Positions 2,213 through 47,351 of a stretch of DNA of 64,000 nucleotides are shown piece by piece. The translations under genes were made by a program, and so were the position numbers. Source of the DNA: a virus. How positions within the stretch are numbered: position 1 is the stretch's first letter; each line of letters starts with the position of its first letter. The notes beneath the pieces were generated by a model. That model saw only the letters and a list, made by a program, of their open reading frames with translations. It did no database searches and was not told the DNA's origin. The stretch is from positions 15,595 to 79,594 of IMG/VR virus record IMGVR_UViG_3300044726_000013. The stretch is one strand, 5' to 3'.

Positions 2213-3055
2213 ATGCGCGTTGAAGACATCTGGGTGTTCGCCCAAAAGCGGCACTACATCTACCTGAGACGCACAGCCGGGGCACCCCCGGAAACGTGGA
2301 CTGATGACCCCATTCTGAAGACCTACCGCTTCTGCAACATGTACCGTGAACTTGACACCGTGACCGATTGGTTGCGGGTCAACTGGCGTGAGCCGCACGC
2401 TGACCACCCTGACCTGTGGCACGCCTTTGTGGTGGCCCGGCACATCAACAACGTGCCCATGCTGACTGCGCTGGGCGGCATCACGCTGCCGTGGGACCCC
2501 GGCCATTTCATTGACGTGGGCATGGCCCGCAAGCAGGCTGGTGAGCGCGTCTGGTCTGCCGCCTACATCATTGGCACCCGCACGCCCGGTGACAAGTGCA
2601 TCTACATTGCCGATAACGTGCTGACGCCCATGTGGCGCAAGCGTGACAAGATCAGGCCGCAACAGGGTGACACGCTGACCAGTTGGCACATGCAGCTTGG
2701 CCTATGGTTCGGCATGGCCAGCTTCATGGCGGCGCAGGTGATTGCGGATATCAAGCACGCCACCCCGGCGCTGAAGAACGCTGGTGACTGGCACACCTTC
2801 TGCGCCAGCGGGCCGGGCAGCCGCCGTGGGCTCAACCGCATCTTTGAGCGTGACAAGAATGCGCCTTGGCGTGAAGATGACTTCAGGCTGAAGCTGCTGA
2901 GCCTGAGGCAGGAACTGGCACCCATGTTTGCCGCCAGCGGCTGGGCTATACCTGACGCGCAAGACGTGCAGAACATGCTGTGTGAGTTTGACAAGTACGA
3001 GCGCACCCGGCTGGGTGAGGGCAAACCCAAGCAACTGTTCAGAGGTGGATCATGA
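2213..3055 (+). CDS. aGPT-Pplase1 / '5-hmdU DNA kinase helical domain' family protein (thymine hypermodification)
   Basis: WTDDPILKTYRFCNMYRELD, FMAAQVIAD, GPGSRRGLNR and QNMLCEFDKY match the hallmark motifs of this family. Confidence 0.85.
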   Translation: MRVEDIWVFAQKRHYIYLRRTAGAPPETWTDDPILKTYRFCNMYRELDTVTDWLRVNWREPHADHPDLWHAFVVARHINNVPMLTALGGITLPWDPGHFIDVGMARKQAGERVWSAAYIIGTRTPGDKCIYIADNVLTPMWRKRDKIRPQQGDTLTSWHMQLGLWFGMASFMAAQVIADIKHATPALKNAGDWHTFCASGPGSRRGLNRIFERDKNAPWREDDFRLKLLSLRQELAPMFAASGWAIPDAQDVQNMLCEFDKYERTRLGEGKPKQLFRGGS

Positions 3056-7060: not shown

Positions 7061-8071
7061 ATGAAAGCCCCCAAGCGCCAGCCGCTGCTGAGTGACATGC
7101 TACTACAGCAGACCCGCAGCCCCTACGACCCGCCGCGCCAGAGCATGCTGACGGCCAAGCGGTTTGACTTTGACGTGCCTGCCTCAGAGTTCGTGGGCAA
7201 GCTGCTGAACAAGACAGCCCGGCTGATCTTGCGTGAACAGGAGTTTGCCCGGCAGCCCTACCCGCAGACGTGGGTTGAACTTGACGCCAGCGCCTACAGC
7301 GCGGGCCTGATGGGCGCGGTTGAGGGCAACCCTGAGACGGCCGACACCAAGTTTGGCTTCCTGTATGACCGGGGCACGGTTCACGGCGGCACGGTCTATT
7401 GCGGCGCGGCCAGCAAGTGGGGCTGCAACTGGTCACCGTTCAAGATCATGCTGCACAAGCCCATGTCATTTGAGGATGAGATGGCGCTGGCCACCCAAAC
7501 GGGGCATTCCCGGTTGACCCTGCGCCAAGCCCTGATTGGCTACGCTGAACACATGCATGACCCATGGTGGCATAGCGATGAGGCCAAGAGCCTTGTGCGC
7601 AGCCACACCTACGTGCCCGCGCCCGGTCTGAGCATGGAACAGAACAGGGGCATCTTGCAACAGCATCAGGGCGTGCTGAAACAGGTGCTGGCCATGCTGC
7701 TGATCTTGACCCGACCGGGACGCCGCGTGCTGACCATCACTGATGAAGGCCACCAGCGCATGATATGGAAGGGCAAGAGCATAGTTCTGGCCAAGCACAG
7801 CGTGGTCAGGCTGCATATTGACCAGAGCGTGGCCATACGGCGGTTTATCAGCGGCGTGCATACAGGCTTGCACAGAAGGCTGCACGATGTCAGAGGTCAT
7901 TGGGCGCAGACGCGCCGCCACCAGAACGCCTGCACGCACGTGTGGGACCCGGTTGACGTTGACCACTACCGCTGCCTGCGGTGTGAGGCCAAGCGGTGGT
8001 GGCGCAAGAACCACAGCAGGGGCCTGCCTGAGGTGGGCACCATTGTTAAGGAATATGAGGTGAGCAAGTGA
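7061..8071 (+). CDS. Hypothetical protein with a C-terminal HxxRGH motif and Cys-containing loop
   Basis: LHDVRGHWAQ...C..CLRC...WWRKNHSRG; AGGAG RBS. Confidence 0.75.
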   Translation: MKAPKRQPLLSDMLLQQTRSPYDPPRQSMLTAKRFDFDVPASEFVGKLLNKTARLILREQEFARQPYPQTWVELDASAYSAGLMGAVEGNPETADTKFGFLYDRGTVHGGTVYCGAASKWGCNWSPFKIMLHKPMSFEDEMALATQTGHSRLTLRQALIGYAEHMHDPWWHSDEAKSLVRSHTYVPAPGLSMEQNRGILQQHQGVLKQVLAMLLILTRPGRRVLTITDEGHQRMIWKGKSIVLAKHSVVRLHIDQSVAIRRFISGVHTGLHRRLHDVRGHWAQTRRHQNACTHVWDPVDVDHYRCLRCEAKRWWRKNHSRGLPEVGTIVKEYEVSK

Positions 8072-8213
8072 AGGAGATTGAACTGTCACGTACACCCATC
8101 AAGCCTGACGTACTCATTGCATGGCTCAAGGAAGCCGGTAAGGGTGGCGTCACGCCCAAGGGCATGCGGCGGCTCTGCCTTGAGGCGGCACGCGCTCTGG
8201 AGGACGCTAAGCC

Positions 8214-8495
8214 ATGAAGCCCATCTGTCTGAAGTGCCAGCGGTTCTACCGGCCCAAGCACAACGGCTACGCCTTCATCGAGGGCATGCCGCTGGGCGCG
8301 TCACCGCCCGGCACCGAGTACCCTGAAGGCTGGGTGCCGTACAAGCTGTGGATTGGTGACCTGTGGCAGTGCAAGGGCTGCGGCCATGAGTTGGTGTCCG
8401 GCGTGGCGCGCCTGCCGCGCGCAGAGCATTATGAGCCAGACTTTGAAGAGAAGGTGAAAAGCTATGGACCCTTGGTTCAAATTAACGACTGCTGA
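8214..8495 (+). CDS. Small zinc-ribbon protein
   Basis: CLKC...CKGC; GGAGG RBS. Confidence 0.7.
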   Translation: MKPICLKCQRFYRPKHNGYAFIEGMPLGASPPGTEYPEGWVPYKLWIGDLWQCKGCGHELVSGVARLPRAEHYEPDFEEKVKSYGPLVQINDC

Positions 8496-8718
8496 GCGGC
8501 GGCGCGCTGAGCGGGCGGCGCACAAGTTCAGTGATGACATAGGCGGGCACGCCAGCAACTACCGCCAGACCGTGCCGCCCATGGTGCACACCAACATCAA
8601 GGATCACAGTGATGTGCGTGACGCCACAACCGAAAAACCGCTGGCACCAAAACCTGACCGATGTTAGGTTCAGGGGTAGCAGGGCCTGTAGGGGTACGGG
8701 AGTAACAGGCTCTGCAAC

Positions 8719-8761
8719 GGCGGCCCGTGGCATTGGCTGGTCACGGGCCGCCTGTTTATTT
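8719..8761 (+). terminator. Intrinsic terminator-like hairpin just upstream of the inositol synthase RBS
   Basis: GGCGGCCCGTG / CACGGGCCGCC 11-bp stem followed by TGTTTATTT. Confidence 0.65.
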
Positions 8762-8779
8762 CAACACAGTGAGGGTTTC

Positions 8780-9862
8780 ATGAGGAAAATACGCGTGGCC
8801 ATTGTGGGCGTGGGCAATTGCGCCAGCGCCCTGATCCAAGGGCTGGCTTACTACGGCCAGACATCTGACAACTACCCCAAGCCCGGCATGATCACACCCT
8901 TGCTGGGCGGCTACGGCCCGGCTGACATTGAGGTGGTCACCGCCTTTGATGTGGTAGACACCAAGGTGGGGTTGCCCATCAATCAGGCCATCTGGGCGCA
9001 ACCCAACAACACCACGGCAATAGTGGATAGCGTGCCTGAGTGCGGCAAGGTCTACCGTGGCCCCACGCTTGACGGTCTGGGCAAGTACCTGCGTGAGGTG
9101 GTGGGTGAAAGCACAGTAGAGCCGATTGACGTTGAAGACACGCTGGCGCTGCTGAATGTGGATGTTCTGGTCAGCTACCTGCCGGTGGGCTCTGATCTGG
9201 CGGCCCAGCACTATGCCGGGGCGGCGCTGCGCGCCAACACAGCATTCGTGAACTGCATGCCTGCGTTCATTGCCTCTGACCCTGAATGGGCCGCTGCCTT
9301 CAAGCGGGCGGGGGTGCCCATCATTGGGGATGACATCAAGTCACAGGTGGGGGCCACCATTGTGCACCGCACGCTGGTGCAGTTGCTGCGTGAGCGCGGC
9401 TATGTGCTGAGGCGCACCAGCCAGTTGAATGTGGGCGGCAATTCTGACTTCCTCAACATGCTTGAGCGCAGCCGCCTGACCAGCAAGAAGATCAGCAAGA
9501 CGCGGGCCGTCACCAGCATCATGGGCGTGGAACTGCCTGCTGAAGACGTGCACATTGGCCCGTCTGACTATGTGCCGTGGCTGGGTGACACCAAGGTGGC
9601 GCACATCAGGCTTGAGGCTGAGGGCTTTGGTGGCGCACCGTTGACCATGGACCTGAAGCTTGAGGTGGTTGACAGCCCCAACAGCGCGGGCGTGGTGATG
9701 GACGCCATACGCTGCGCCGCCGTGGCGCAGGACCGTGGGCAGGGCGGGCCGGTGGCGGCAGCCTGCGCTTGGTACATGAAAAGCCCGCCCGAACAGTGGG
9801 ATGATAGCGTGGCCAGTGATCTGCTTGATGAATGGCTGAGAGGGGATGATCTGACATGGTGA
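8780..9862 (+). CDS. ino1: Myo-inositol-1-phosphate (inositol-3-phosphate) synthase
   Basis: IRVAIVGVGNCASALIQG, VSYLPVGS, IIGDDIKSQVGATIVHR, QLNVGGNSDFLNM, SKKISKT, HIGPSDYVPWL, EVVDSPNSAG, YMKSPP. Start at ATG 8780 after GAGG. Confidence 0.95.
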   Translation: MRKIRVAIVGVGNCASALIQGLAYYGQTSDNYPKPGMITPLLGGYGPADIEVVTAFDVVDTKVGLPINQAIWAQPNNTTAIVDSVPECGKVYRGPTLDGLGKYLREVVGESTVEPIDVEDTLALLNVDVLVSYLPVGSDLAAQHYAGAALRANTAFVNCMPAFIASDPEWAAAFKRAGVPIIGDDIKSQVGATIVHRTLVQLLRERGYVLRRTSQLNVGGNSDFLNMLERSRLTSKKISKTRAVTSIMGVELPAEDVHIGPSDYVPWLGDTKVAHIRLEAEGFGGAPLTMDLKLEVVDSPNSAGVVMDAIRCAAVAQDRGQGGPVAAACAWYMKSPPEQWDDSVASDLLDEWLRGDDLTW

Positions 9863-10902
9863 GAGAATTTTCAACTGAGCAACACCGCAAGCACTTTGCT
9901 GAGTTCTGTAGGTGGGAGTTGGCCAGCGGTGGCCCAGACCCGCAACTGGCCATGGTGGCTTATATGGCCCGCCAGCAAGAGGTGAATGAAGAGGAGCAGT
10001 TGTGGCGGGCCTTCTGCTACATTGGCCCCTACAACGTGCCCTACGGTGAAGTGCTGTGGCGGCACTGGTCATACCGCGATCTGGCTGATGACGAGAAGGG
10101 CATCATAAAGGCGGGCCTGCGCAACTGGCTTGATGCCGCTTTCAACGCTGACAAGATCACCACCCGCATTGAGCGGCGCACGGTGCGGCGGGCCGATTGG
10201 CTGCATGAGTACCTGTTGGGTGCCCGGCGCTTCATCTGGCATGACTGGCCTGAGTTGGTGGATGAGTGCCTGAGCCTTCACCCGCACCAAGCCTATGAGG
10301 TGGCATGGCAGAAGGTCACGGCGCTGCCGCGCATAGGCCGCTACGCGGCAATCAAGCTGATTGAGTACCTGAGGCGCTATCAGGGGCTGATGGTCCTCAC
10401 GCCCGATATACGGCCCAAAGACGCATGGTCACCGCGCCATACGCTGGGCTACATCTGGCCAGACCGCAACCTTGGCAACCGTGACAACAGCCCTGAGGCG
10501 CTGACGGTGGCCAGCCAAGCCTGCATTGACGCGCTGACGCTGCTGAAGCATGACTACGATGTCACCATAGACATGTTTCAGCTTCAGGTGCTGCTGTGTG
10601 AGTACCGTGAAAGCTGGGAAAAGGGCAAGCAATACCCCGGCCGCTCACTAGATAGCGAACTGGGCTACGCCCGCAAGGCTGAACTTGACTGGGCCTACAA
10701 CAGCGGCATCTGGCGCGCCCGGCGTGACCTGTTCCCGCTACAGCATCTGGGTGAGCATCAGGGCTGGGAGGGGCCGCGCAAGCCGGTGGCCGGGTGCCTG
10801 CGTGACCACGGCTACACGTGGACTGACCTGAAGTATGACTTCATCAAAACCACTGATATGGATGAGCCTGTGATGTGGAGAGGGTCTGATGGCAGCCGGT
10901 GA
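9856..10902 (+). CDS. Amino acid:DNA transferase family (aGPT-Pplase2-like, HhH fold) 5-phosphomethyluracil transferase
   Basis: GGPDP, WRAFCYIGPY, LPRIGRYAAIKLIEYL, FQLQVLLCEYR and YPGRSLD resemble AADT motifs. Sits beside the hmU kinase and thymidylate synthase homologue, and overlaps the ino1 stop. Confidence 0.7.
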   Translation: MVREFSTEQHRKHFAEFCRWELASGGPDPQLAMVAYMARQQEVNEEEQLWRAFCYIGPYNVPYGEVLWRHWSYRDLADDEKGIIKAGLRNWLDAAFNADKITTRIERRTVRRADWLHEYLLGARRFIWHDWPELVDECLSLHPHQAYEVAWQKVTALPRIGRYAAIKLIEYLRRYQGLMVLTPDIRPKDAWSPRHTLGYIWPDRNLGNRDNSPEALTVASQACIDALTLLKHDYDVTIDMFQLQVLLCEYRESWEKGKQYPGRSLDSELGYARKAELDWAYNSGIWRARRDLFPLQHLGEHQGWEGPRKPVAGCLRDHGYTWTDLKYDFIKTTDMDEPVMWRGSDGSR

Positions 10903-11083
10903 CCGGGTTGAGGGTGAGACGTTGCACACGTACCTTGGGGATGGCGTCTACGCCAGCTTTGACGGCTACCAGATATGGCTGCGGGCCGACCGCTTTGGCA
11001 TAGAGCAAGCCGTGGCCGTTGAGCCTGAGGTGATGGCCCAACTGGTGATCTACGCCGCCAAGGTCTTTGGGGAAAAGCCATGA
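10889..11083 (+). CDS. Small conserved phage protein
   Basis: YLGDGVYASFDGYQIWL motif; overlaps both neighbours. Confidence 0.7.
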   Translation: MAAGDRVEGETLHTYLGDGVYASFDGYQIWLRADRFGIEQAVAVEPEVMAQLVIYAAKVFGEKP

Positions 11084-11517
11084 TGAAAATCTACCGCGTG
11101 GCAACAGACCTGATGCTGTCTGCCCGCACCCACACCCTGACCGATGACCAGTGCGTTGATCTGGTCAACAGGCATGAACTCACCGCCATCATCAACCTGT
11201 GGCACACGCCGGATCAGCGCGTGGCCAAGATGGTTGACTGGTATGAGTGCGTGCCGCTGCCTGACGGCCAGATCAGTGAGCGCATGGCCCACTGCCTTGA
11301 AACCTTGGCAGATGACGTGGCCGCTGAGGTGCGCAGGGGCGGCAGGGTGCTGATGCATTGTTGGGGCGGGCGCAACCGCTCAGGTTTGCTGGCGGCCTTG
11401 GTGCTGACCCGGCTGGAGCGTATAACCGGCAGCCAAGCCTATGACCGCGTGCGGGCCGTGCGGCGCGGCGCGCTGGTCAACCTGCACTTTGCCAACTACC
11501 TGAAGAGGCGGCCATGA
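11080..11517 (+). CDS. Cys-based (PTP/dual-specificity family) phosphatase
   Basis: VLMHCWGGRNRSG (HCX5R loop), with an upstream PLPD acid loop. Confidence 0.9.
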   Translation: MMKIYRVATDLMLSARTHTLTDDQCVDLVNRHELTAIINLWHTPDQRVAKMVDWYECVPLPDGQISERMAHCLETLADDVAAEVRRGGRVLMHCWGGRNRSGLLAALVLTRLERITGSQAYDRVRAVRRGALVNLHFANYLKRRP

Positions 11518-11927
11518 GCATTCCTGAAAAGCTACGTCAGGCATATCATAACGATCTGACTGACGTGCCCTTGCTGCTTGAGGCGGCTGATGAAATTGAC
11601 AAGTGGGACCGGCGTTGGTGCGTGGCTGTTAAGACGATAGCTGAGCGTGATGAAACCATCGAGCGGCTGACGGCAGAGCGCAACAAGCTGGAAGACATGT
11701 GGCGTGAGCGCCCCACCGGCACCCGCAACCAGCGTGAGCGCCAGCTTACCAAGCGGTTGGAAGACGCTGAGGCATTAGCTTTCACGCTGGCAACGCAGGT
11801 CAGGGCGGCTGAGGCCGTACTGGTGACCATTGAGAGCCGGGCCAGCGGCTACACCCATGGGGATGAACGGGTTGAAGCCACGTTCAGGGGCATAGCGGAA
11901 CTTGCCCGTAAGAAGGCGGCGTCATGA
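11514..11927 (+). CDS. Hypothetical coiled-coil protein
   Basis: ATGA overlaps at both ends; LLEAADEI motif. Confidence 0.65.
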   Translation: MSIPEKLRQAYHNDLTDVPLLLEAADEIDKWDRRWCVAVKTIAERDETIERLTAERNKLEDMWRERPTGTRNQRERQLTKRLEDAEALAFTLATQVRAAEAVLVTIESRASGYTHGDERVEATFRGIAELARKKAAS

Positions 11928-12487
11928 GCATTGTTCTGATCAGGGGCACGGGCGGCAGCGGCAAGACCTACATTGCCGAGCAGGTGATCAAGGCGCTGGG
12001 CGGCCTGAGCGCGGCCACCACGTTCACCATGGGGCCCAAAGACAAGACGGCGGGCTACATCTGGCGGGCTCCCCCGGTTACCATCATGGGGCGCTACGGC
12101 AACGCCTGCGGCGGCTGTGACACCATTGGCGGCTGGCCGGGGGGTCCAGATGATATCTGCAAGCGCATTGCCGTTGAGGCGTCACTGGGCCAGAGCGTGC
12201 TGTGGGAGGGCATTGCCGTCAGCAGCTACGGCCAGAAGCGGTTGCTGCTGATGCCGGGCCTGACGGTCATTCAGCTTGACACTTCACTTGAGGAATGCGT
12301 TAAGTCAATCTATGCGCGGCGCGCGGCCAAGGGCAATGCAAAGCCGCTTGACCTGTACCACACCGAGCGTAAGCATAAGGCGCTGTTTACGACCACGCGC
12401 AGCAACGCGGCGGCGGGCATTGCCACTGAGACGCACAGCCGTGAAACTGCATTGCCGCGCGTCATGGAATTACTTGGTTTAGTTTAG
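11924..12487 (+). CDS. P-loop kinase, probable 5-hydroxymethyluracil DNA kinase
   Basis: IRGTGGSGKT, GRYGNACGGCDTI, LWEG, LDTSLEECVKSIYARR, plus genomic context. Confidence 0.8.
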   Translation: MSIVLIRGTGGSGKTYIAEQVIKALGGLSAATTFTMGPKDKTAGYIWRAPPVTIMGRYGNACGGCDTIGGWPGGPDDICKRIAVEASLGQSVLWEGIAVSSYGQKRLLLMPGLTVIQLDTSLEECVKSIYARRAAKGNAKPLDLYHTERKHKALFTTTRSNAAAGIATETHSRETALPRVMELLGLV

Positions 12488-12628
12488 GGGAGATCATTTT
12501 GAGGGCGAACGGCCAGCCCAACAACGGTAAGTCACCTCCCTATCTCCCCGGCCCAGTGCGGCTTGCTTAGAGGGTCAAGGTGATGCGGCTAGGAAAGTGC
12601 ATACCTTTTTGGTTCAGAGCGTTGAGAG

Positions 12629-12668
12629 TGGCGGCGGGGCAGGCGAACCCCCCGCCGCCATTTTATTT
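12629..12668 (+). terminator. Intrinsic terminator-like hairpin just upstream of the dUMP hydroxymethylase RBS
   Basis: TGGCGGCGGGG / CCCCGCCGCCA stem followed by TTTTATTT. Confidence 0.7.
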
Positions 12669-12682
12669 GAGGGGAGTTTCAC

Positions 12683-13738
12683 ATGTTTACTATTCACGTC
12701 AGCAACGTCAACTACGCATGGCTTGACGCCATCAAGCTTATTCAGCAGTACGGCGTGCCAGAAGACAGCCGCGCGGGGCGCGTCAGCGTGATGCCCGGCC
12801 CGGTGACCACCATCTATAACCAGCCGCGCCAGAGGGTGCTGTTTGATGCTGTGCGTGACGCCAACCCGGTGTTTCACCTGCATGAGGCGCTGTGGATGCT
12901 GGCGGGGCGCAATGACGCTACGGGGCTAGATATATTCGTCTCAGATTTCAGCGCCCGGTTTGCTGAAGAGGATGGCCGCCAGCACGGGGCCTATGGCTAC
13001 CGCTGGCGCAACCACTTCACCAACGTGCGTGACTTTGCGGGCGTTGACATGGATCAGCTTGACGTGGTGGTTGACATGCTGGCGCGTGACCCCGGCACAC
13101 GGCAGGCGGTCATTGCAATGTGGGACGCTGAGGTTGACCTTGACCAGCCGCGCCTGAAGGATAAGCCCTGCAACACCCACATCTACCTGCGCCTGCGCAT
13201 CACGCCACGCACCGCTGGGGCTAGTGCCAGTGGGCTGATGGTGCAGGCTGACCTGCGTGAACTTGACATGGCCGTGATGTGCCGCAGCAATGACATCGTG
13301 TGGGGTTGCTACGGTGCCAACGCCGTGCACTTCAGCATCTTGCAGGAGTATCTGGCAGCGCGGATGGGCGTAGAGATGGGGCGGCTGACGCAGTTCAGCT
13401 TCAACTGGCACATGTACTCTGCCACCAAGCATCTGGCTGACATCGTGGGGGCTGAGGCGGGCATCATGGGCGGCTACCCCGGCACCGTGCCGCTGGTGAC
13501 AGACCCCCGCAGCTTTGACCGTGAGGTGCGCGCCTATGTGCAAGACCCCAGCCTTGCCACGCTGGGTGAATTTGATAACGAGTTTCTGACCCGCACGGCA
13601 TGGCCCATGTACATGGCCAACATTGAGCGCAAGGCGGGCAACACGGCCACGTCTGCCCTGACGTGGGCAGAAAGCATTCAGGCACCAGATTGGCGCAAGG
13701 CCACCATGGCGTGGCTAGAAAGGAAGATAAAGAAATGA
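12683..13738 (+). CDS. Thymidylate synthase homologue, probable dUMP hydroxymethylase
   Basis: RDANPVFHLHEALWMLAGRND, HGAYGYRWR, TRQAVIAMWD, DKPCN, CRSNDIVWGCYGANAVHF, NWHMY. The Asn in GANAV indicates dUMP rather than dCMP as substrate. Confidence 0.88.
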   Translation: MFTIHVSNVNYAWLDAIKLIQQYGVPEDSRAGRVSVMPGPVTTIYNQPRQRVLFDAVRDANPVFHLHEALWMLAGRNDATGLDIFVSDFSARFAEEDGRQHGAYGYRWRNHFTNVRDFAGVDMDQLDVVVDMLARDPGTRQAVIAMWDAEVDLDQPRLKDKPCNTHIYLRLRITPRTAGASASGLMVQADLRELDMAVMCRSNDIVWGCYGANAVHFSILQEYLAARMGVEMGRLTQFSFNWHMYSATKHLADIVGAEAGIMGGYPGTVPLVTDPRSFDREVRAYVQDPSLATLGEFDNEFLTRTAWPMYMANIERKAGNTATSALTWAESIQAPDWRKATMAWLERKIKK

Positions 13739-14034
13739 GCATCTTCAGGACGGTCAGAAAGATCAAGGACTGTGACACCTGCAACGGCAGCGGCCGGGTA
13801 CTTACCGACCCCGCCAAGGGCACTGAGGGGCCGTGTGATACCTGTGGCGGCGAGGGCCGGGTAGAGGTGCTGGTCAGGGCCAACCGGGCGGCGGTGCATC
13901 AGGCTGAGGTGGCTACCAAGCAGATGAACCCCGGCCCGGCGCGCAAGGCCGCCAAAGCCCGGCTTGCCGGTGTTGAGAAGGATGGTACTGTCAGTTCTGA
14001 TGACAGTAGAGGGTTTGTGAATGAAGACGAGTGA
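13735..14034 (+). CDS. DnaJ-type zinc-finger small protein
   Basis: CDTCNGSG and CDTCGGEG. Confidence 0.7.
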   Translation: MSIFRTVRKIKDCDTCNGSGRVLTDPAKGTEGPCDTCGGEGRVEVLVRANRAAVHQAEVATKQMNPGPARKAAKARLAGVEKDGTVSSDDSRGFVNEDE

Positions 14035-14572
14035 CACTGATTTTGTGACTGACTGCCTGATGTTTGCCGGGCGCATCAAGCGATACCACTCTTGGCCGGT
14101 GATCCAAAACCAGACGGTGGGTGAGCATTGCTGGCAGGTGGCGCTGATCTACCAGCAACTTTGGGGTGACATCCCCAGCCCGGTTGAGAAGTACATCAGG
14201 CTGCATGACGTGGCTGAACTTGTGCTGGGTGACATACCGTTCCCCGCCAAGGCCAACAACCCTGACCTGAAGGCGGCCTATGACGCGGCTGAGGGCCGGG
14301 CGCTGGCTGAGTTGGGCCTGTACGTGCCCACGCTGCACCCTGACGTGCGGCTCAAGGTCAAGATTTGCGACCTGCTTGAGATGATGTGCTTTGGCATGGT
14401 TGAGCGTGAACTGGGCAACACGCTGGCCCTGCCCATCATCATACGCACGCGTGAGGCGGCGCTGAAGCTGGTCAACAAAATAGATACAGAAGGTGAGCGC
14501 AACCGAATATATGCTTGGTCTGATCAACAGATTGAGCGGCACCACGCCGCGTTGGCACAGACAGAAGATTAA
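14021..14572 (+). CDS. HD-domain 5'-deoxynucleotidase (YfbR-like)
   Basis: IKRYH...QTVGEHC...LHDVAELVLGDIPFPAK...VKICD. Confidence 0.85.
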   Translation: MKTSDTDFVTDCLMFAGRIKRYHSWPVIQNQTVGEHCWQVALIYQQLWGDIPSPVEKYIRLHDVAELVLGDIPFPAKANNPDLKAAYDAAEGRALAELGLYVPTLHPDVRLKVKICDLLEMMCFGMVERELGNTLALPIIIRTREAALKLVNKIDTEGERNRIYAWSDQQIERHHAALAQTED

Positions 14573-14581
14573 GGAGTACTA

Positions 14582-15202
14582 ATGTTGGATAAAGTCAAGA
14601 CAATACTTGAGGAGCGGCCCGGCAAGCACGGTGAGTTTGCTGAGAACAGTCACGCTACTTGGGAAATCATGCGCGCTATGCAGCATGAGCGCAACTGGCC
14701 GACCATGACCGATCAACAGAAGCACGCCGTCTACATGGTGGCGCACAAGCTGGCGCGCATTGTCTGTGGTGACCCGGCTGAGCCTGACCACTGGGATGAC
14801 ATTGCCGGGTATGCCACGCTGGTGGCTGACCGTCTGCGCAAACCCGTGGTGCCCTATGACGGCACTGACGTGTACAGCGCGCTGGCTGTGGCGTGGCACG
14901 TGCCGCGTGAAGAGGCCAAGGCCCGCGTGCAGCAGATCATGCGCCAGCAAGCTGGCCAGCGCACTGAGGCCGCCGCCACCATGGCCAAAGACCTGTCAGG
15001 CAGGCCCACCAGCGCGCTTGAGGCGTTTGGGCGGTCACAGACACTACCCAAGGCGTCAGACGCGCCCCAGCGGCCCCAGCGGCCCGGCACGGGCACGCCT
15101 GAAGACGGTGGCCACCACGCTGATGTCAGCGCTGAAGAGCTGGCTGAAGAACTGCGGCGTGAACTTGAGGCTGATCTGGGCACGCGGCAACAGGGCGTGT
15201 GA
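14582..15202 (+). CDS. DUF6378-like nucleotide-modification-associated protein
   Basis: ILEERPGKHGEF...MVAHKLARIVCGD...DHWDDIAGYATL. Confidence 0.75.
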   Translation: MLDKVKTILEERPGKHGEFAENSHATWEIMRAMQHERNWPTMTDQQKHAVYMVAHKLARIVCGDPAEPDHWDDIAGYATLVADRLRKPVVPYDGTDVYSALAVAWHVPREEAKARVQQIMRQQAGQRTEAAATMAKDLSGRPTSALEAFGRSQTLPKASDAPQRPQRPGTGTPEDGGHHADVSAEELAEELRRELEADLGTRQQGV

Positions 15203-15205
15203 GCC

Positions 15206-17206
15206 TTGGCCAAAGCCAGACGCCATCAAGAGGGTCAGCTAGGCTTGTTCAAACCCGATAGCGACTGGCAGCCACCGGCCGAGTTGCCTGACCTGAGGGG
15301 CAGGCCGGTGGTGGCCCTAGATTGTGAAACCAAAGATCAGGGCCTGATGGACAAGAAGGGCTCAGGCTGGGCGCTTCTGAGAAGCGGCACCATCTGCGGT
15401 GTCAGTTGGGCGGCGGCGGGCAGTAGCGGCTACGCGCCCATGGCGCACCCTGACACGGCAGAGCCGCTGAACGTGATTGAGTGGGTCAGCGATCTGGTCA
15501 AGAGCGGCACCAAGCTGGTATTCCACAGTGCCGCCTATGACTATGGCTGGCTGACCCGGCTTGATGCCGACATGACCGGCGCTGACATCAATGACACGCT
15601 GGCCGCCTGCGTGCTGGTTGATGAAACGGAATACAGCTACGCCCTTGATGATTGCTGCAAGCGCATAGGCTTGCCGGGCAAAGACATGACCATGCTGCTC
15701 AAGGCCGTGGAGGCGTTTGGCAGCGACCCCAAGAAGGCGCGTGAGAACATCTGGCGGCTACCGGCCAAGTATGTTGCGCCCTACGCCATAGCCGACGCCG
15801 AGCAGACGCTGGCGCTGTGGCACGCCACGCAGCCGCTGCTGATTGAACAGAACCTGATGGCCGCCTATGAGACTGAGATGGGTCTGGTGCCCATGGTGGT
15901 GGCCATGCGGCGGCGGGGGATCAGGCTTGACCTACCCCGCATTGAGGCCCTGATCAAGGCGCTGGCGGTAGAACGTGACGCGGCACTGGCTGACGTGGGT
16001 GAACTCATGGAAATGCCCCGCCCCGCCAGCATGGATGAGATACGCAGCCCCAAGAACATGGAGAAGTGGTTCACCGTCAACAAGATCACTTTTCCTTACA
16101 CGGCCAAGGCACAGCAGGGCAGCTTCACCAAAGACTGGATGGAGAAGCATGAACACCCGCTGCCGCGTGCCTGTGCGCGGGCAGAACTGTATGAAGAGGC
16201 GGCGGCCAAGTTCGTCAACAACTACCTGTTGGGCTACCAGAGCAACGGGCGCATTCACGCGGAAATTCACCAGTACCGTGACACGACCGGGGGCACCCGC
16301 AGCCACCGCTTTAGCTACTCTGAGCCGCCGCTGCAACAGATGACCAGCCCCGACAAGCCGGGGCCGCTGGGTGCCATAGGCAAGGCCATCAGGGGGTGCT
16401 TCTTGCCTGAGCCCGGTGAGCGCTGGGTGGCGCTTGATTACTCTCAGCAGGAACCCCGGCTGACCGTGCACTTTGCCAGCAAGGTGGGTGCTGAGGGCGC
16501 TGAAGCGGCGGTGCAGCGGTACATAGACAAACCCGATACCGACTATCACGCCATGGTGGCAGAGATGACCGGCAGGCCCCGACCCATAGCCAAAATCCTC
16601 AACCTTGCCATGACCTACGGCAAGGGCAAGCGCAGTCTGGCTGAGGAACTGGGCGTCAGCCTGTCAGACGCTGAGGCCATACTGGCTGACTACCACGACC
16701 GGCTGCCGTTCATCAAAAGCCTAGAGGACAAGTGCAAGAACGCCGCCAGCCAGCGCGGCTACATCAGGCTGATAGACGGGGCGCGCATGCACTACCCGCA
16801 ATGGGAGGGTGGCTACGTTGACTGGGACCGGCGCGCTGACGCTGAGCGGCGCGGCAAGGTGCTGACGCCAACTGATCTGGCCACCGCGCAAGAGCGGCAG
16901 GCCGACCCCGACCACCCGTGGTCTGGCACAAGGCTGCGGCGGGCTGACACGCGCAAGGCGCTGAACAATCTGGTGCAGGGCAGCGCGGCCCGGCAGACCA
17001 AGCGGGCCATGCTGGCCATCTGGCAAGAGGGCATCATACCCATGGTGCAGTTGCATGACGAACTTGACATCAGCACCGCTGACCGGGCAGTGGCGCTGCG
17101 GGTACAGCAGATCATGGTTGAGACGACCCCGCTGGTGGTGCCTACCATTGTGGACCTTGAGGTTGGCCCCACGTGGGGTGAAGCAAAAGAGGAGTGGCAT
17201 GCCTAA
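15206..17206 (+). CDS. polA: Family A DNA polymerase with a 3'-5' exonuclease domain
   Basis: ALDCET (ExoI), YAIADAE (ExoIII), LDYSQQEPR (motif A), AKILNLAMTYG (motif B), QLHDEL (motif C). Confidence 0.95.
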   Translation: MAKARRHQEGQLGLFKPDSDWQPPAELPDLRGRPVVALDCETKDQGLMDKKGSGWALLRSGTICGVSWAAAGSSGYAPMAHPDTAEPLNVIEWVSDLVKSGTKLVFHSAAYDYGWLTRLDADMTGADINDTLAACVLVDETEYSYALDDCCKRIGLPGKDMTMLLKAVEAFGSDPKKARENIWRLPAKYVAPYAIADAEQTLALWHATQPLLIEQNLMAAYETEMGLVPMVVAMRRRGIRLDLPRIEALIKALAVERDAALADVGELMEMPRPASMDEIRSPKNMEKWFTVNKITFPYTAKAQQGSFTKDWMEKHEHPLPRACARAELYEEAAAKFVNNYLLGYQSNGRIHAEIHQYRDTTGGTRSHRFSYSEPPLQQMTSPDKPGPLGAIGKAIRGCFLPEPGERWVALDYSQQEPRLTVHFASKVGAEGAEAAVQRYIDKPDTDYHAMVAEMTGRPRPIAKILNLAMTYGKGKRSLAEELGVSLSDAEAILADYHDRLPFIKSLEDKCKNAASQRGYIRLIDGARMHYPQWEGGYVDWDRRADAERRGKVLTPTDLATAQERQADPDHPWSGTRLRRADTRKALNNLVQGSAARQTKRAMLAIWQEGIIPMVQLHDELDISTADRAVALRVQQIMVETTPLVVPTIVDLEVGPTWGEAKEEWHA

Positions 17207-44529: not shown

Positions 44530-47124
44530 ATGGCCAAGCGTCTGGGCAAGAAGCTGCATATGAGCCGTGGGGCAACCCACGCCCGCATGCAGTTTCAGGA
44601 AGCCAAGCACAAGCGTGATGTCAGCGGCAAGTTTGCTGACATGCCGGGCAGCGTTGTGCCGGGCCTTGACGGCAACGTTGCTGACATAGCGCCCGCAATG
44701 CAGCCAGCCACCAAGGCTGACTGGATGGCAGGTGCCAAGACCAGCAAGGTGACGGGTGATGACCTGATCAAGCTGCACGTCACCAGCAACCCCAAGAAGG
44801 CGGGCAGCGCGGCGGCTGAGCGCTTTGCCAAATACACCGACGGCATGAGCGTGGCTGACTACCGCAAGGCCGGGGGCACCGCTGAAGACTTGGCTTGGGA
44901 CCGCAAGCGCGGCTTTGTCAGCTTTCACACGCCAGACACCTACCACAGCATCAGCACCAACGGGGCCTCCCCGGTCAGTCAGATCAACCACCAGACCGCC
45001 ACTGGGCGGCTGGCCAACATCAAGGCGCAGGCTGAGGCCAAGGCAGGCGTGACCACTGAGGCGGTGAAGCCACCCCCACCTGACGTGCCCATGAAGGCGT
45101 CTGGTGAGCCGCCTGAGCCACCGCCGCCGCCCAAGCCGGTAGAAGCGGCCCCTAAACCCGCCGCTGCGGCCCCAGCCAGCCCCGCCAGCGCGTCTGCGGC
45201 CCCCAAGGCACCTGAGACACCCGCCGCGCCCAAACCCGCGCCCACGGGCACGCCTGAGGCCGCTGTGGTGGCCAAGCCGCCTGAGGTGGGCGTGGTTGAG
45301 CCTGCGGCAGCCCCCAAGATTGAGCCAAGCACCAAGGTTGGCTTCTACAAGAAGGGGGTGACGCCGGATGAGACAACCACGCTGAACGGCGTTGAGTTGA
45401 AGCCGTGGACCCCGCCCAAAGACAATGCGGGCTGGGCCAAGGTTGACGGGCAGAACCCAGATATCGGTGAGACACCGCTGAATGCCAAGGGCAAGCGGCC
45501 GGGCGCTGGCGTGCTGATCACTGAGCCTGACGGCAGGGTTTGGCTGGTCAAGCCCACCAAGGGTTATGGCGGCTATGAGTACACATTCCCCAAGGGTGGC
45601 CAAGACCCCGGTGAGGGCCTGTCACTGCAAGCCACCGCCATCAAGGAAGCGTATGAAGAAAGCGGCCTGAAGGTGCGCATCACTGGCGTGGCCGGTGACT
45701 TTGAGGGTGACACCAGCGTGGCGCGCTACTACCACGCGGTGCGTGAGGACGGTAGGCCCGCAGATCATGGCTGGGAGAGTGAAGCCGTTGTGCTGGTGCC
45801 CAAGGACCAGCTTGACCTGTACTTGAACAAGAGCCGTGACAAGAGCATTGCCACACAGCACCTGAAGCCTGAGCCCAAGCCCGCTGGCGCGCCGCCTGCC
45901 GCGCCTGCGCCCAAGCCTGCTGAAGGCCCAACCGTGGCACCCAGCGGTCTACCGCCGCAGATGCCCAATGACCACCGCTTCAAGATTGAAGACGTGGTGG
46001 ACATGCCCGCCCACAAGATGGTTGATGAGGGTGACGCGGGTCTGGAGTGGGAGTACAAGAAAGAATATCACCAGTACGGTGGCGATAACTGGGTCAAGAG
46101 CGTGGGCGGCACCCGCATCACAGACCAAGCTGACTTCAACAAGAAGTATAAGGATGCCCCGCTCACTTATCTGACCAATGATCAATACGATAACCTTGGC
46201 TACACCAGCGTCAACACCAAGAAGTTGCCCACGTTCAACGAGATTGCGCCGGGCCTGATACAGCGCAACCGTGACCCCAAGGCTATCAGGGACCGCATGT
46301 TCAACGGTGTGACCACGCCGCCTATTGTGCTGAAGCACGGCAACACCTACCGCCTGATGGCAGGCCAGAGCCGCATTTGGACCGGCCTGTCTGCGGGCAT
46401 CAGGGTGCCGGTCAAGGTCATAGACGTGACGCCCGGTGCAGCCAAGCCAGTGGTGGGCAAGGGCAAGTTCACTGAGGCTGACATTGTGGGTGACAAGGTA
46501 GTCACTTCAATGTTCAGGGAAAAATTCACCACCCGCATGAACAAGCTGCCTGAGAAGTTTGTCAGTGCGGCCATAAAGGATGGTAAGCCTCACCTCTACG
46601 GCAGCTACAAAGGTGCCACAGACGCACCGCACATGAAGATGAGCGGCACGTCAAAGGCCCCGGTGGCTTATTATGCCATCAAGGAAAAGCACACAGCCTT
46701 CTTTGAAGACATGAACAGCAAGTCGGGCAAGGCTCTGAAGGGCAATGGCTACACTGACGCGGAGGTAGAGGAATATCACTTGGGCAACATTGCCCATGAA
46801 CTGGGCCATCAAATGGATTATATCAACCGCACCAAGGTGCCGGGTAAATTTCAGATGACGGGTGGGTCAAAAGACCCTGAGTTCATGACCAAGGCTGAGA
46901 AGATACGGAAGAGATATGTCACAACGCCCAACCAGACCGATCAAGAGAAGTGGGCCACCTATTTCACGTCTGATCAAGAGATGTGGGCGGCGGGCACCGA
47001 GGTGGTGATGATGGGCGGGCGCAGGGGCGTCAGCAGCAAGAACAGCTTGCTGGGCAAATTGATGCATGAAGAGGGCTTGGTTGATTGGATGACTGCCCAT
47101 TACAAGAGTAGGGGTGCGCTGTGA
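44530..47124 (+). CDS. Multidomain putative virion effector: HKRDxxGKF motif, NPK domain, Nudix hydrolase, ParB-like segment and zincin HExxH domain
   Basis: KHKRDVSGKF; NPKKAGSAAAERFAKYTDGMSV; FPKGGQDPGE...KEAYEESGL; PPIVLKHGNTYRLMAGQSR; IAHELGHQMD...QEMWA. Confidence 0.8.
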   Translation: MAKRLGKKLHMSRGATHARMQFQEAKHKRDVSGKFADMPGSVVPGLDGNVADIAPAMQPATKADWMAGAKTSKVTGDDLIKLHVTSNPKKAGSAAAERFAKYTDGMSVADYRKAGGTAEDLAWDRKRGFVSFHTPDTYHSISTNGASPVSQINHQTATGRLANIKAQAEAKAGVTTEAVKPPPPDVPMKASGEPPEPPPPPKPVEAAPKPAAAAPASPASASAAPKAPETPAAPKPAPTGTPEAAVVAKPPEVGVVEPAAAPKIEPSTKVGFYKKGVTPDETTTLNGVELKPWTPPKDNAGWAKVDGQNPDIGETPLNAKGKRPGAGVLITEPDGRVWLVKPTKGYGGYEYTFPKGGQDPGEGLSLQATAIKEAYEESGLKVRITGVAGDFEGDTSVARYYHAVREDGRPADHGWESEAVVLVPKDQLDLYLNKSRDKSIATQHLKPEPKPAGAPPAAPAPKPAEGPTVAPSGLPPQMPNDHRFKIEDVVDMPAHKMVDEGDAGLEWEYKKEYHQYGGDNWVKSVGGTRITDQADFNKKYKDAPLTYLTNDQYDNLGYTSVNTKKLPTFNEIAPGLIQRNRDPKAIRDRMFNGVTTPPIVLKHGNTYRLMAGQSRIWTGLSAGIRVPVKVIDVTPGAAKPVVGKGKFTEADIVGDKVVTSMFREKFTTRMNKLPEKFVSAAIKDGKPHLYGSYKGATDAPHMKMSGTSKAPVAYYAIKEKHTAFFEDMNSKSGKALKGNGYTDAEVEEYHLGNIAHELGHQMDYINRTKVPGKFQMTGGSKDPEFMTKAEKIRKRYVTTPNQTDQEKWATYFTSDQEMWAAGTEVVMMGGRRGVSSKNSLLGKLMHEEGLVDWMTAHYKSRGAL

Positions 47125-47351
47125 CAACGTTTGTGCATGTGATCAGCCTGACTGCAACGCTGTACCCGGTGCTGACCCAGAATGAAAACATTCTGGGCGA
47201 CGGTGAGATGACGCGTGATGAATTGGAGGCCATGCTGCCTGAGGGTGAGCGGCTGAGTGAGGGGCATTACGAAATCAGTGATGACGGCGTGGCCCGGTGG
47301 GTGGGCTTTGATCTGCCGCCACCCGCTGATGAGGCGGATGAGGCGTTCTGA
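47121..47351 (+). CDS. Small acidic protein
   Basis: GTGA/TGATG overlaps with both large neighbours. Confidence 0.6.
   Translation: MTTFVHVISLTATLYPVLTQNENILGDGEMTRDELEAMLPEGERLSEGHYEISDDGVARWVGFDLPPPADEADEAF

Follow-up and report, generated by a model that had tools for sequence, protein, structure and literature searches.

A candidate thymidine-hypermodification operon that includes myo-inositol-3-phosphate synthase and a cysteine-based phosphatase in a soil and sediment phage

Introduction

The gp46–gp55 cluster of Pseudomonas phage PaMx11, whose enzyme activities have been published, comprises a transferase (gp46, PUGT/ADDT), an FAD lyase (gp47), an acetyltransferase (gp48), 5-HMUDK (gp49), gp50, a thymidylate synthase-like (TS-like) enzyme (gp51), an HD protein (gp52) and Pol (gp55); gp49 is a proven 5-hmdU DNA kinase (PMC8989533, Table 1). 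In Salmonella phage ViI, gp247 is a serine:DNA transferase: a free amino acid is O-linked to 5-hmU as an ether, and a PLP decarboxylase then acts to give 5-NeOmdU. Base J (glucosyl-5-hmU) of kinetoplastids and phage glucosyl-hmC and glucosyl-hmU are 5-hydroxymethylpyrimidines bearing a polyhydroxylated C6 group; there, glycosyltransferases and UDP-sugars generate an acetal.

Here we analyze a 64,000-nucleotide stretch of DNA from a soil and sediment phage (the window), in which the region 8780–13738 is probably an operon for thymidine hypermodification like those of PaMx11, M6 and ViI, joined to a new donor branch. While the underlying type of pathway is already known, the proposed involvement of Ino1 and a phosphatase in thymine hypermodification is new: no paper describing this association was found in the literature.

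Results

Organization of the locus

The genes of the region form a chain with overlaps of 4–14 nt, according to the ORF coordinates. Their products include Ino1 (full length), a divergent homologue of ADDT/PUGT, a phosphatase of the CX5R type, the P-loop 5-hmdU DNA kinase and a TS homologue of the uracil type; all five genes are located where the initial annotation had placed them (Table 1). The gene order is common to the window and PaMx11 gp46–gp55, and the family A polymerase closes the module as in PaMx11. The window differs by the absence of the FAD lyase and the acetyltransferase, and by the presence of Ino1 upstream and of the phosphatase downstream of ADDT. Ino1 and the phosphatase had been assigned to the tailoring slot; this collinearity agrees with that assignment, the phosphatase lying in the slot itself and the transferase gene being immediately preceded by Ino1.

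Table 1. Features of the hypermodification region and its surroundings (window coordinates)
Feature	Position	Strand	Evidence
HMUDK_hel helical-domain protein of 5-hmdU DNA kinase	2213..3055	+	PF18723 5.4e-36
Ino1/MIPS, myo-inositol-3-phosphate synthase	8780..9862	+	PF01658, TIGR03450, 1GR0 alignment
Divergent amino-acid:DNA transferase (ADDT / aGPT-Pplase2 / PUGT fold)	9856..10902	+	hhalign, AF2 + Foldseek
64-aa ORF between transferase and phosphatase	10889..11083	+	phrog_11545 2.4e-4
Cys-based CX5R phosphatase, small DUSP fold	11080..11517	+	PF00782 40.9 bits
137-aa ORF, possibly coiled coil, uncertain coding	11514..11927	+	weak DUF6468 match
P-loop subunit of 5-hmdU DNA kinase	11924..12487	+	Walker A; homology to PaMx11 gp49
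Thymidylate-synthase-family enzyme, inferred dUMP hydroxymethylase	12683..13738	+	PF00303, phrog_5131
HD-domain 5'-deoxynucleotidase-like protein	14021..14572	+	PF12917 1.8e-9
Family A DNA polymerase	15206..17206	+	PF00476 2.3e-37

An assembly artefact at the junctions was rejected, the Ino1/ADDT junction being bridged in contigs from four other studies (soil, groundwater, sediment) and the ADDT/phosphatase junction in three of these four contig sets. As for the two small ORFs, the 64-aa one has 86% identical counterparts in L009 and L010, the closest relatives; an 81% match to the 137-aa one was found in L018 only, and a GC3-based gene call favoured an ORF on the opposite strand.

Ino1 and the transferase

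Ino1 starts with an ATG preceded by a ribosome-binding site (GAGGG) and is apparently intact, as previously proposed: it matches PF01658 (4e-35, 120.6 bits) and aligns end to end, without gaps, with Mycobacterium tuberculosis Ino1 (1GR0; 415 bits, residues 3–354). In an alignment of 18 Ino1 sequences from phages, 58 columns do not vary. The protein scores 448.7 bits against TIGR03450, below the equivalog cut-off of 638, and 218 bits against 6K96, a five-membered cyclitol-phosphate synthase; judged by sequence, it is much nearer genuine MIPS than other cyclitol-phosphate synthases. The overlap with the transferase gene lies within ATGGTGA, which contains both the Ino1 stop codon and the ATG of the next gene, and the two genes are predicted to be translationally coupled.

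The transferase, the genome's only ADDT, is so divergent compared with its PaMx11 counterpart that Pfam misses it: it has no match of its own at E<=0.01 and reaches 14.9 bits against PF18724, a domain carried by relatives at 45–65% identity. Its proposed kinship with ADDT proteins is nevertheless well founded. Indeed, hhalign aligned it with PaMx11 gp46, ViI gp247, Cr30 gp123 and Wooper gp3 (probability 99.2%, E 8e-20, 283 columns), its AF2 model (pLDDT 95.9) has 8Z2N (PaMx11 gp46/PUGT, the top match) and 8Z2M as top Foldseek matches, and its invariant C248 aligns with Cys247, the proposed catalytic residue of PUGT. The residues aligned with the PUGT glycine contacts Asp24, Lys150 and Trp146 are Asp28, Lys167 and Tyr163, respectively; the window ADDT may therefore accept an amino-acid-like donor.

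Kinase, thymidylate-synthase homologue and downstream genes

The P-loop protein (Walker A, GTGGSGKT) is 31.7% identical to PaMx11 gp49 (YP_009196302) over 97% of its length. It had been annotated as a P-loop kinase and proposed for comparison with HMUDK; the homology to 5-HMUDK supports the assignment, but the helical partner, which is 33.6% identical to PaMx11 gp50 over its full length, had been missed. In many related loci the HMUDK_hel gene directly follows the P-loop gene, whereas the two are 9 kb apart in the window, another difference from PaMx11; the window kinase is split. The TS homologue (PF00303, 4.5e-18, 65.8 bits; phrog_5131, 1.5e-81) is 38% identical to PaMx11 gp51, retains the catalytic Cys (PCN) and has a uracil-type Asn at the position of the Asp found in cytosine-specific MilA, in keeping with the dUMP-type specificity first attributed to it. 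The HD protein, 30% identical to PaMx11 gp52, is probably involved in dTMP exclusion. As initially noted for the window, PLP, radical-SAM (rSAM) and glycosyltransferase families were not found among the genome's larger ORFs, nor was any other candidate donor or tailoring gene found in the genome.

The phosphatase follows the ADDT clade

The phosphatase is a DSPc protein with the predicted HCX5R signature (HCWGGRNRSG), within which the family motif CxxGRNRS is conserved; its AF2 model (pLDDT 96.7) has a DUSP fold (TM ~0.8). No specific likeness to inositol phosphatases was seen, and the protein looks like a generic small DUSP. It is a near-constant partner of the window's ADDT clade: of 61 non-redundant viral loci, 59 have it directly downstream of the transferase, and a number of loci encode the two as a fusion (L021/L022, L047/L049/L099, P0022, P0023, P0028, P0031, P0032 and P0036). 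It tracks the ADDT clade, not Ino1. Note that some loci carry both HAD and DSP phosphatases, which a single-phosphatase scheme does not account for.

Lipid synthesis offers a chemical parallel: CDP-DAG reacts with glycerol-3-P or inositol-3-P to give PGP or PIP, then PG or PI, i.e. a polyol-phosphate hydroxyl meets an activated electrophile and a dedicated phosphatase subsequently removes the phosphate, the substrates being lipids instead of DNA. PTPMT1, which dephosphorylates PGP in mitochondria, belongs to the DSPs, and its CxxGRxRS loop resembles the CxxGRNRS of the window enzyme; no sequence relation to the lipid-pathway phosphatase was detected beyond the P-loop motif.

Ino1 recurs beside ADDT genes

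Ino1 is rare overall (19 of 50,697 deposited phage records). The best 80 of 292 viral matches were reduced to 58 non-redundant loci, a sample that is biased because the matches kept were those most similar to the query alignment. Among these 58 loci, Ino1 sits beside an ADDT in 40: both the window's ADDT clade and the phosphatase adjoin it in 35, making the ino1–ADDT–CX5R synteny survey suggested at the outset strongly positive, and a canonical ADDT with a mini-HAD phosphatase is nearby in five. Nine others have 7-deazaguanine DNA-modification genes next to Ino1, and four have neither kind of gene nearby. Some phosphatase (DSP, HAD or mini-HAD) was present in every viral Ino1 context examined. 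The Ino1–ADDT linkage persists despite changes in gene order, gene insertions and ADDT divergence to 30% identity, and also when the source of hmU switches from the TS-like enzyme to Tet/JBP.

Conversely, only about half of the loci anchored on ADDT contain Ino1. It is absent from three complete phage genomes that carry ADDT and the phosphatase, one of which (82 kb) shares the window's synteny and has a 56% identical ADDT; the ADDT–phosphatase module can therefore do without Ino1. In some relatives, an FkbM-type O-methyltransferase, an rSAM/SPASM enzyme or a HAD phosphatase is inserted between Ino1 and ADDT, which suggests tailored variants of the modification. In the PDB, the rSAM enzyme matches by sequence only BtrN, a cyclitol dehydrogenase, and does so weakly (E 0.003).

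Discussion

That Ino1 feeds a cyclitol onto thymine within a hypermodification operon is the best explanation of these data, and one we hold to be probable. To judge from characterised homologues, the TS-like enzyme would make 5-hm-dUMP, so that the DNA would be replicated with 5-hmU; the split kinase (11924–12487 and 2213–3055) would phosphorylate 5-hmU in DNA to 5-PmdU, the chemistry up to this point presumably being that of PaMx11; and ADDT would flip the base out, activate it via Cys248, expel the phosphate and add a nucleophile. Gene linkage suggests the remaining steps: Ino1 would supply the nucleophile by converting glucose-6-phosphate to myo-inositol-3-phosphate, ADDT would attach inositol-3-phosphate or inositol to the phosphorylated 5-hmU, a cyclitol hydroxyl attacking in the manner of the ViI serine hydroxyl to yield an ether-linked cyclitol, and the phosphatase would take off a phosphate. 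As a rough guess, its target might be the phosphate of a DNA-bound cyclitol phosphate; free inositol-3-phosphate, before transfer, and unreacted 5-PmdU are both rather doubtful targets. ViI is thus a precedent for an O-linked cyclitol, although the window has a cyclitol-phosphate synthase and a phosphatase in place of the PLP enzyme. The predicted nucleoside would equal that of base J in mass; in contrast to base J, the DNA side would be phosphate-activated, the donor unactivated and the product an ether to a carbocycle. The joining of Ino1 and the phosphatase to the known thymine pathway hence suggests that the phage makes an undescribed cyclitol-bearing DNA base. Of the cyclitol-installing pathway proposed in the initial annotation, the ADDT, the kinase and the gene linkage hold; the behaviour of the phosphatase, which follows the ADDT clade, and the complete genomes devoid of Ino1 speak against it.

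These last observations would fit a scheme in which ADDT transfers a host metabolite (amino acid, polyamine or glycerol-3-phosphate), the phosphatase is an eraser (5-PmdU to 5-hmU) or trims a host phospho-metabolite, and Ino1 is an auxiliary metabolic gene sharing the early operon. Minimal clusters (Tet/JBP, ParB, ADDT, DSP, kinase) without a donor gene and the chemical conservation of the PUGT glycine-contact positions point the same way. We nonetheless regard this scheme as unlikely: it explains neither why the 40 Ino1 genes abut ADDT in unrelated phage types and varied gene orders, nor the start/stop overlap, nor the insertion of O-methyltransferase, HAD or rSAM genes exactly between Ino1 and ADDT. 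It is still less probable that Ino1 feeds the modification to give something other than a simple inositol ether, i.e. a phosphodiester via inositol-3-phosphate, or a cyclitol that host enzymes further oxidise, methylate or aminate. The FkbM and rSAM/SPASM genes adjoining Ino1 in relatives, the BtrN match and the five-membered product of 6K96, a second solved relative of the window's Ino1, argue for such a product; however, the window itself has no such tailoring genes, the constant phosphatase would have nothing to act on if a phosphodiester were formed, and Ino1 scores 415 bits against true MIPS versus 218 for the five-membered cyclitol-phosphate synthase.

Finally, Ino1 and the phosphatase could be unrelated to DNA chemistry and alter, for instance, the cell envelope or the inositol pools of the host, their clustering reflecting a shared early/nucleotide-metabolism region. 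Stenotrophomonas phages do carry Ino1 among 7-deazaguanine genes without ADDT, and the four loci mentioned above (from the best 80 of 292 matches) have no modification gene nearby. Yet Ino1 directly adjoins a group-transfer enzyme, recurrently in distinct lineages, and its other contexts, too, are gene clusters for DNA base modification rather than for general metabolism, which makes this reading very improbable. To return to the preferred cyclitol-base proposal, the cultured Caulobacter phage Cr30, a T4-like myovirus, brings together ADDT, Ino1, a kinase and a phosphatase of the mini-HAD type independently of the window's lineage and makes the proposal testable.

Organisation of the cluster and of its source genome

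The cluster lies in a 79.6-kb viral record judged 97% complete, of which the window covers bases 15595-79594 (~61% G+C). As established from ORF coordinates and family scans, it forms a run of plus-strand genes in which neighbours are joined via overlaps of 4-14 nt (see the table), and its order matches that of the experimentally characterised PaMx11 gp46-gp55 cluster: transferase, tailoring genes, kinase, helical protein, thymidylate synthase (TS)-like enzyme, HD protein and polymerase. The arrangement is not an assembly artefact, because independent contigs span the junctions: that between Ino1 and the transferase is spanned by contigs from four other studies (soil, groundwater, sediment), and that between the transferase and the phosphatase in three of those four as well. 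A contig joint omitting 9154-10573 was present in two runs, its flanking sides measuring just 21 nt. Megablast of 8000-15000 against deposited phages returned no match, and the nearest polymerases are at most 37% identical.

Table. Genes of the candidate modification cluster and its associated genes (window coordinates)
Feature	Position	Strand	Remarks
HMUDK helical-domain protein	2213-3055		PF18723
Ino1	8780-9862	+	ATG start, GAGGG ribosome-binding site
ADDT (amino-acid:DNA transferase) homologue, 348 aa	9856-10902	+	ATG overlapping the Ino1 stop in ATGGTGA
64-aa ORF	between transferase and phosphatase	+	
DSPc phosphatase	11080-11517	+	motif HCWGGRNRSG
137-aa ORF	between phosphatase and P-loop gene	+	
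P-loop kinase protein	11924-12487	+	Walker A GTGGSGKT
Thymidylate-synthase homologue	12683-13738	+	PF00303
HD-domain nucleotidase-like protein, then DUF6378 protein, then family A polymerase	downstream of the TS homologue	+	

Two regions outside the cluster proper may be mentioned here. At 7061-8071 the window encodes a 336-aa protein that is conserved in relatives upstream of the cluster and has no Pfam match; its language-model features resemble those of AcrVA2-like anti-CRISPR clusters (score 0.96), which we treat as a lead only. Upstream of the window, at L006:12922-14610 and L006:11927-12811 (locus L006), an AEP-type primase domain of the kind found in TOTE conflict systems and a Pam3 gp34-like protein are encoded just upstream of the replication module.

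The transferase belongs to a divergent ADDT clade

The initial annotation had described the product of the second gene as AADT-like. Profile homology, fold and the catalytic cysteine uphold this description, whereas the direct family search stays below threshold: against PF18724 the protein scores 14.9 bits (E 6e-4), under the gathering threshold of 26.2 bits, and a Pfam scan gave nothing at E ≤ 0.01. Homologues in the database number 125, and many of them, at 45-65% identity, carry PF18724; relatives in this identity range pass the threshold, as does the variant at locus L072. When a profile built from 43 sequences was compared by hhalign with PaMx11 gp46, ViI gp247, Cr30 gp123 and Wooper gp3, the match extended over 283 columns with a probability of 99.2% (E 8.3e-20). 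The AF2 model (pLDDT 95.9) shows the all-helical two-bundle fold of PUGT (PaMx11 gp46), which is related to HhH glycosylases. Indeed, the PUGT structures 8Z2N/8Z2M occupy Foldseek ranks 1-3 (probability 1.0, TM 0.46-0.57) and are followed by EndoIII and Ogg HhH glycosylases.

At the residue level, C248 is invariant in the 43 sequences and aligns with PUGT Cys247, the proposed catalytic nucleophile. E106, D266 and E268 are likewise invariant, and K167 and D28 nearly so. Conservation does not extend to the metal ligands of PUGT: opposite Glu243 and Thr244, we read Q244 and V245 in the alignment. The protein, which is the only ADDT of the genome, is thus assigned from sequence and model to a divergent ADDT subfamily, and is predicted to transfer a nucleophile onto phosphorylated 5-hmdU (5-PmdU). 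An amino-acid-like donor is possible, because the positions touching glycine in PUGT are chemically conserved in this protein.

The enzymes predicted to prepare the acceptor base

The P-loop protein had been proposed to be the 5-hmdU DNA kinase (5-HMUDK), and this identification is strengthened on three counts: the Walker A motif, 31.7% identity to PaMx11 gp49 (YP_009196302) across 97% of the protein, gp49 being an experimentally shown 5-hmdU DNA kinase (PMC8989533), and the presence elsewhere in the window of its PF18723 partner (124.8 bits, E 5.4e-36), the helical domain being encoded here as a separate protein. The P-loop and helical genes stand side by side in many relatives; in this genome the helical gene lies beyond the interval first delineated. 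No Pfam kinase family matched the P-loop protein. Its PHROG/RefSeq label, small terminase, is ruled out by the homology to the proven kinase, and a true Sf6-type small terminase sits elsewhere in the genome. In RefSeq and PHROGs, the name 'terminase small subunit' is widely and wrongly given to 5-hmdU DNA kinases (L136:4486-5055, L002:10054-10599 and phrog_800); PaMx11 gp49 itself bears it, and it is found in several Pseudomonas and Rhodoferax phages.

The TS homologue is of the dUMP type, as initially annotated: it matches PF00303 (65.8 bits), is 38% identical to PaMx11 gp51, keeps the catalytic Cys of the PCN motif and has the uracil-specifying Asn facing the Asp of the cytosine-specific MilA. 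That it is a dUMP hydroxymethylase, and not a methylase, we infer from the kinase and the ADDT encoded in the same cluster.

Ino1 and the phosphatase

A full-length myo-inositol phosphate synthase is confirmed by a gap-free alignment with M. tuberculosis Ino1 (1GR0, 414.9 bits; residues 3-354 on 15-366) and by a PF01658 score far above the cut-off (120.6 against 27 bits). Aligned with 17 other phage Ino1 sequences, the protein has 58 invariant columns in common with them, and it scores 218 bits with Ari2, a five-membered cyclitol-phosphate synthase. Against TIGR03450 it reaches 448.7 bits, under the NCBIfam equivalog cut-off of 638 bits, and its product is therefore inferred, not assured; the protein represents a diverged viral branch of MIPS.

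The phosphatase matches PF00782 (40.9 bits, cut-off 33.5) and has an HCX5R(S/T) loop whose CxxGRNRS segment is conserved across the family, and its fold resembles those of DUSP5, DUSP14 and DUSP28 (TM ~0.8). Neither the PDB sequence matches nor the top 50 fold matches revealed any likeness to PTP-like phytases, PTEN/myotubularin or PFA-DSPs: they consist of generic small DUSPs and archaeal PTPs, which give no pointer to the substrate. Complex prediction for the ADDT and the phosphatase scored 0.00, a value that counts neither for nor against their pairing.

Ino1 and the phosphatase in relation to the ADDT clade

Ino1 is encoded by 292 viral contigs and by 19 of the 50,697 deposited phage genomes. 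We examined the best 80 of the 292 contigs, a sample biased toward query-like sequences, which gave 58 non-redundant loci. The joint occurrence of ino1, AADT and CX5R genes anticipated by the initial annotation was found in this sample: Ino1 adjoins this ADDT clade and the phosphatase in 35 of the 58 loci (best 80 of 292), a canonical ADDT together with a 120-aa DxDGV-motif protein, read as a mini-HAD phosphatase, in five, the mini-HAD only in five, genes for FolE, QueC, DpdA and QueE in nine, and none of these genes in four.

Among the 19 deposited genomes, Caulobacter phage Cr30 encodes four such proteins inside 6 kb: an ADDT (PF18724, 1.3e-52), Ino1, a mini-HAD and a kinase of the Ploopntkinase3 type. 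In this T4-like phage (L002:1706-10599, gp129-gp114) the canonical ADDT is gp123, gp122 is weakly TAGT-like and gp121 is Ino1; gp118 is the mini-HAD, gp114 a Ploopntkinase3-like 'terminase small subunit', and gp129 contains a weak Tet/JBP-like match. All of them bear either a wrong name or the label hypothetical in the annotation. In Ralstonia phage RP13, Ino1 adjoins a mini-HAD, and weak matches of ADDT and kinase type occur a few kb upstream of it. In Stenotrophomonas Menderavirus phages, Ino1 and a mini-HAD lie within a 7-deazaguanine cluster, and no ADDT was found in these phages. In Stenotrophomonas phage Moby (L001:6207-11621), Ino1 is placed between FolE and QueC/DpdA/QueE together with a mini-HAD-like protein of 123 aa that has a DxDGV motif and no Pfam match, likewise at L105, L130 and L132; this position is inside a 7-deazaguanine DNA-modification cluster, the genome has no ADDT, and these two proteins may decorate a deazaguanine.

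The converse survey was anchored on the transferase: an IMG/VR scan yielded 50 loci whose transferases share 26-87% identity with that of the window, and reduction at 90% identity, with loci from a second scan added, gave 61 transferase clusters. A CX5R phosphatase is encoded 0-760 bp downstream in 59 of the 61, and the two enzymes form a single polypeptide at L021/L022 and L047/L049/L099 and in six database proteins. In roughly half of the loci anchored on the ADDT, the gene immediately upstream is Ino1; its presence is clustered on the transferase tree, requiring at least four gains or losses and eight most parsimoniously. Three complete genomes have the ADDT and the phosphatase and Ino1 nowhere, which shows that the phosphatase belongs with the transferase and not with Ino1. 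One of them, a relative of 82 kb, keeps the same synteny but has a radical-SAM gene at the Ino1 position. In the Ino1-less loci, the search for other donor-synthesis genes beside the ADDT and phosphatase returned just terminase, DnaB, a Dam-like methylase, a beta-helix protein and unknowns.

In the surveyed loci, hmU is supplied either by a TS-like enzyme or by Tet/JBP with ParB. Two phages with Tet/JBP, ADDT and kinase, Microbacterium phage Kozie and Gordonia phage Wooper, are not models for this variant, because both DSP and Ino1 are absent from them. Relatives may have one further gene separating Ino1 from the transferase, for an O-methyltransferase of the FkbM family, a HAD phosphatase or a radical-SAM/SPASM enzyme; by sequence, the radical-SAM enzyme matches nothing in the PDB except, weakly, the cyclitol dehydrogenase BtrN. 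These accessory genes suggest a family of tailored variants. Examples next to the ADDT are found at L015:9087-10016, L031:9206-9910 and L051:9423-9986 (radical-SAM/SPASM, FkbM-family O-methyltransferase, HAD phosphatase).

A candidate cyclitol modification of thymine

Judged by the characterised enzymes to which its proteins are homologous (PMC8989533, PMC11472151), the pathway would run as far as 5-PmdU. As to the group then placed on the base, the absence of PLP and radical-SAM enzymes and glycosyltransferases first noticed in the window extends to the cluster, the upstream 15.6 kb and 41 further ORFs, in which methyltransferases and HAD proteins were not found either. Among the scanned ORFs, the genome thus offers no candidate donor or tailoring gene other than those for Ino1 and the phosphatase. 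From the linkage of the genes, we consider it reasonably probable that Ino1 supplies the group placed on thymine. The likeliest form would be an ether via a cyclitol hydroxyl, as with serine in ViI, and the phosphatase would take the phosphate off after transfer. Its substrate could be a DNA-bound cyclitol phosphate; it could also be free inositol-3-phosphate or unreacted 5-PmdU.

A broader proposal, which we put forward tentatively and with somewhat less than even confidence, is that phages own a modular cyclitol donor unit (Ino1 and a phosphatase, optionally with an O-methyltransferase or radical-SAM enzyme) serving at least two base-modification systems: inositol- or methyl-inositol-ether thymines made via the dedicated ADDT-CX5R phosphatase pair, and possibly decorated 7-deazaguanines in DpdA-type clusters.

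To our knowledge, all characterised thymidine hypermodifications have an amino acid or a polyamine as their starting material, and a literature search found no paper tying inositol or Ino1 to ADDT enzymes or to phage DNA hypermodification. A DNA base bearing a cyclitol would add a new chemical class to the natural nucleobases, and a modular unit would provide the first carbocyclic polyol DNA bases. The cyclitol base would equal base J in mass and follow a different logic, the DNA being activated and not the donor. It would bear on restriction and CRISPR evasion, on how such DNA is sequenced and handled with enzymes, and on enzymatic tools for labelling DNA at specific sites. The idea is testable at once, since the cultured phage Cr30, whose Caulobacter host is a laboratory organism, carries ADDT, Ino1, phosphatase and kinase. 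Regardless of the chemistry, a large ADDT clade has been missed by Pfam, its near-constant phosphatase partner is not known to have been described, and most viral ino1 genes in the surveyed loci, usually called auxiliary metabolic genes, sit in DNA-modification clusters.

Other features of the genome

A pooled Pfam scan identified large virion-region proteins with NUDIX and ADP-ribosyltransferase domains at 44530-50260 of the window. Finally, the trinucleotide composition of the whole genome is strongly biased: TCG and CGA occur at 0.24 of expectation, TCC at 0.32 and GGA at 0.42, and TCA and TGA are enriched about 2-fold. This bias could reflect restriction avoidance or the sequence context of a thymine modification.
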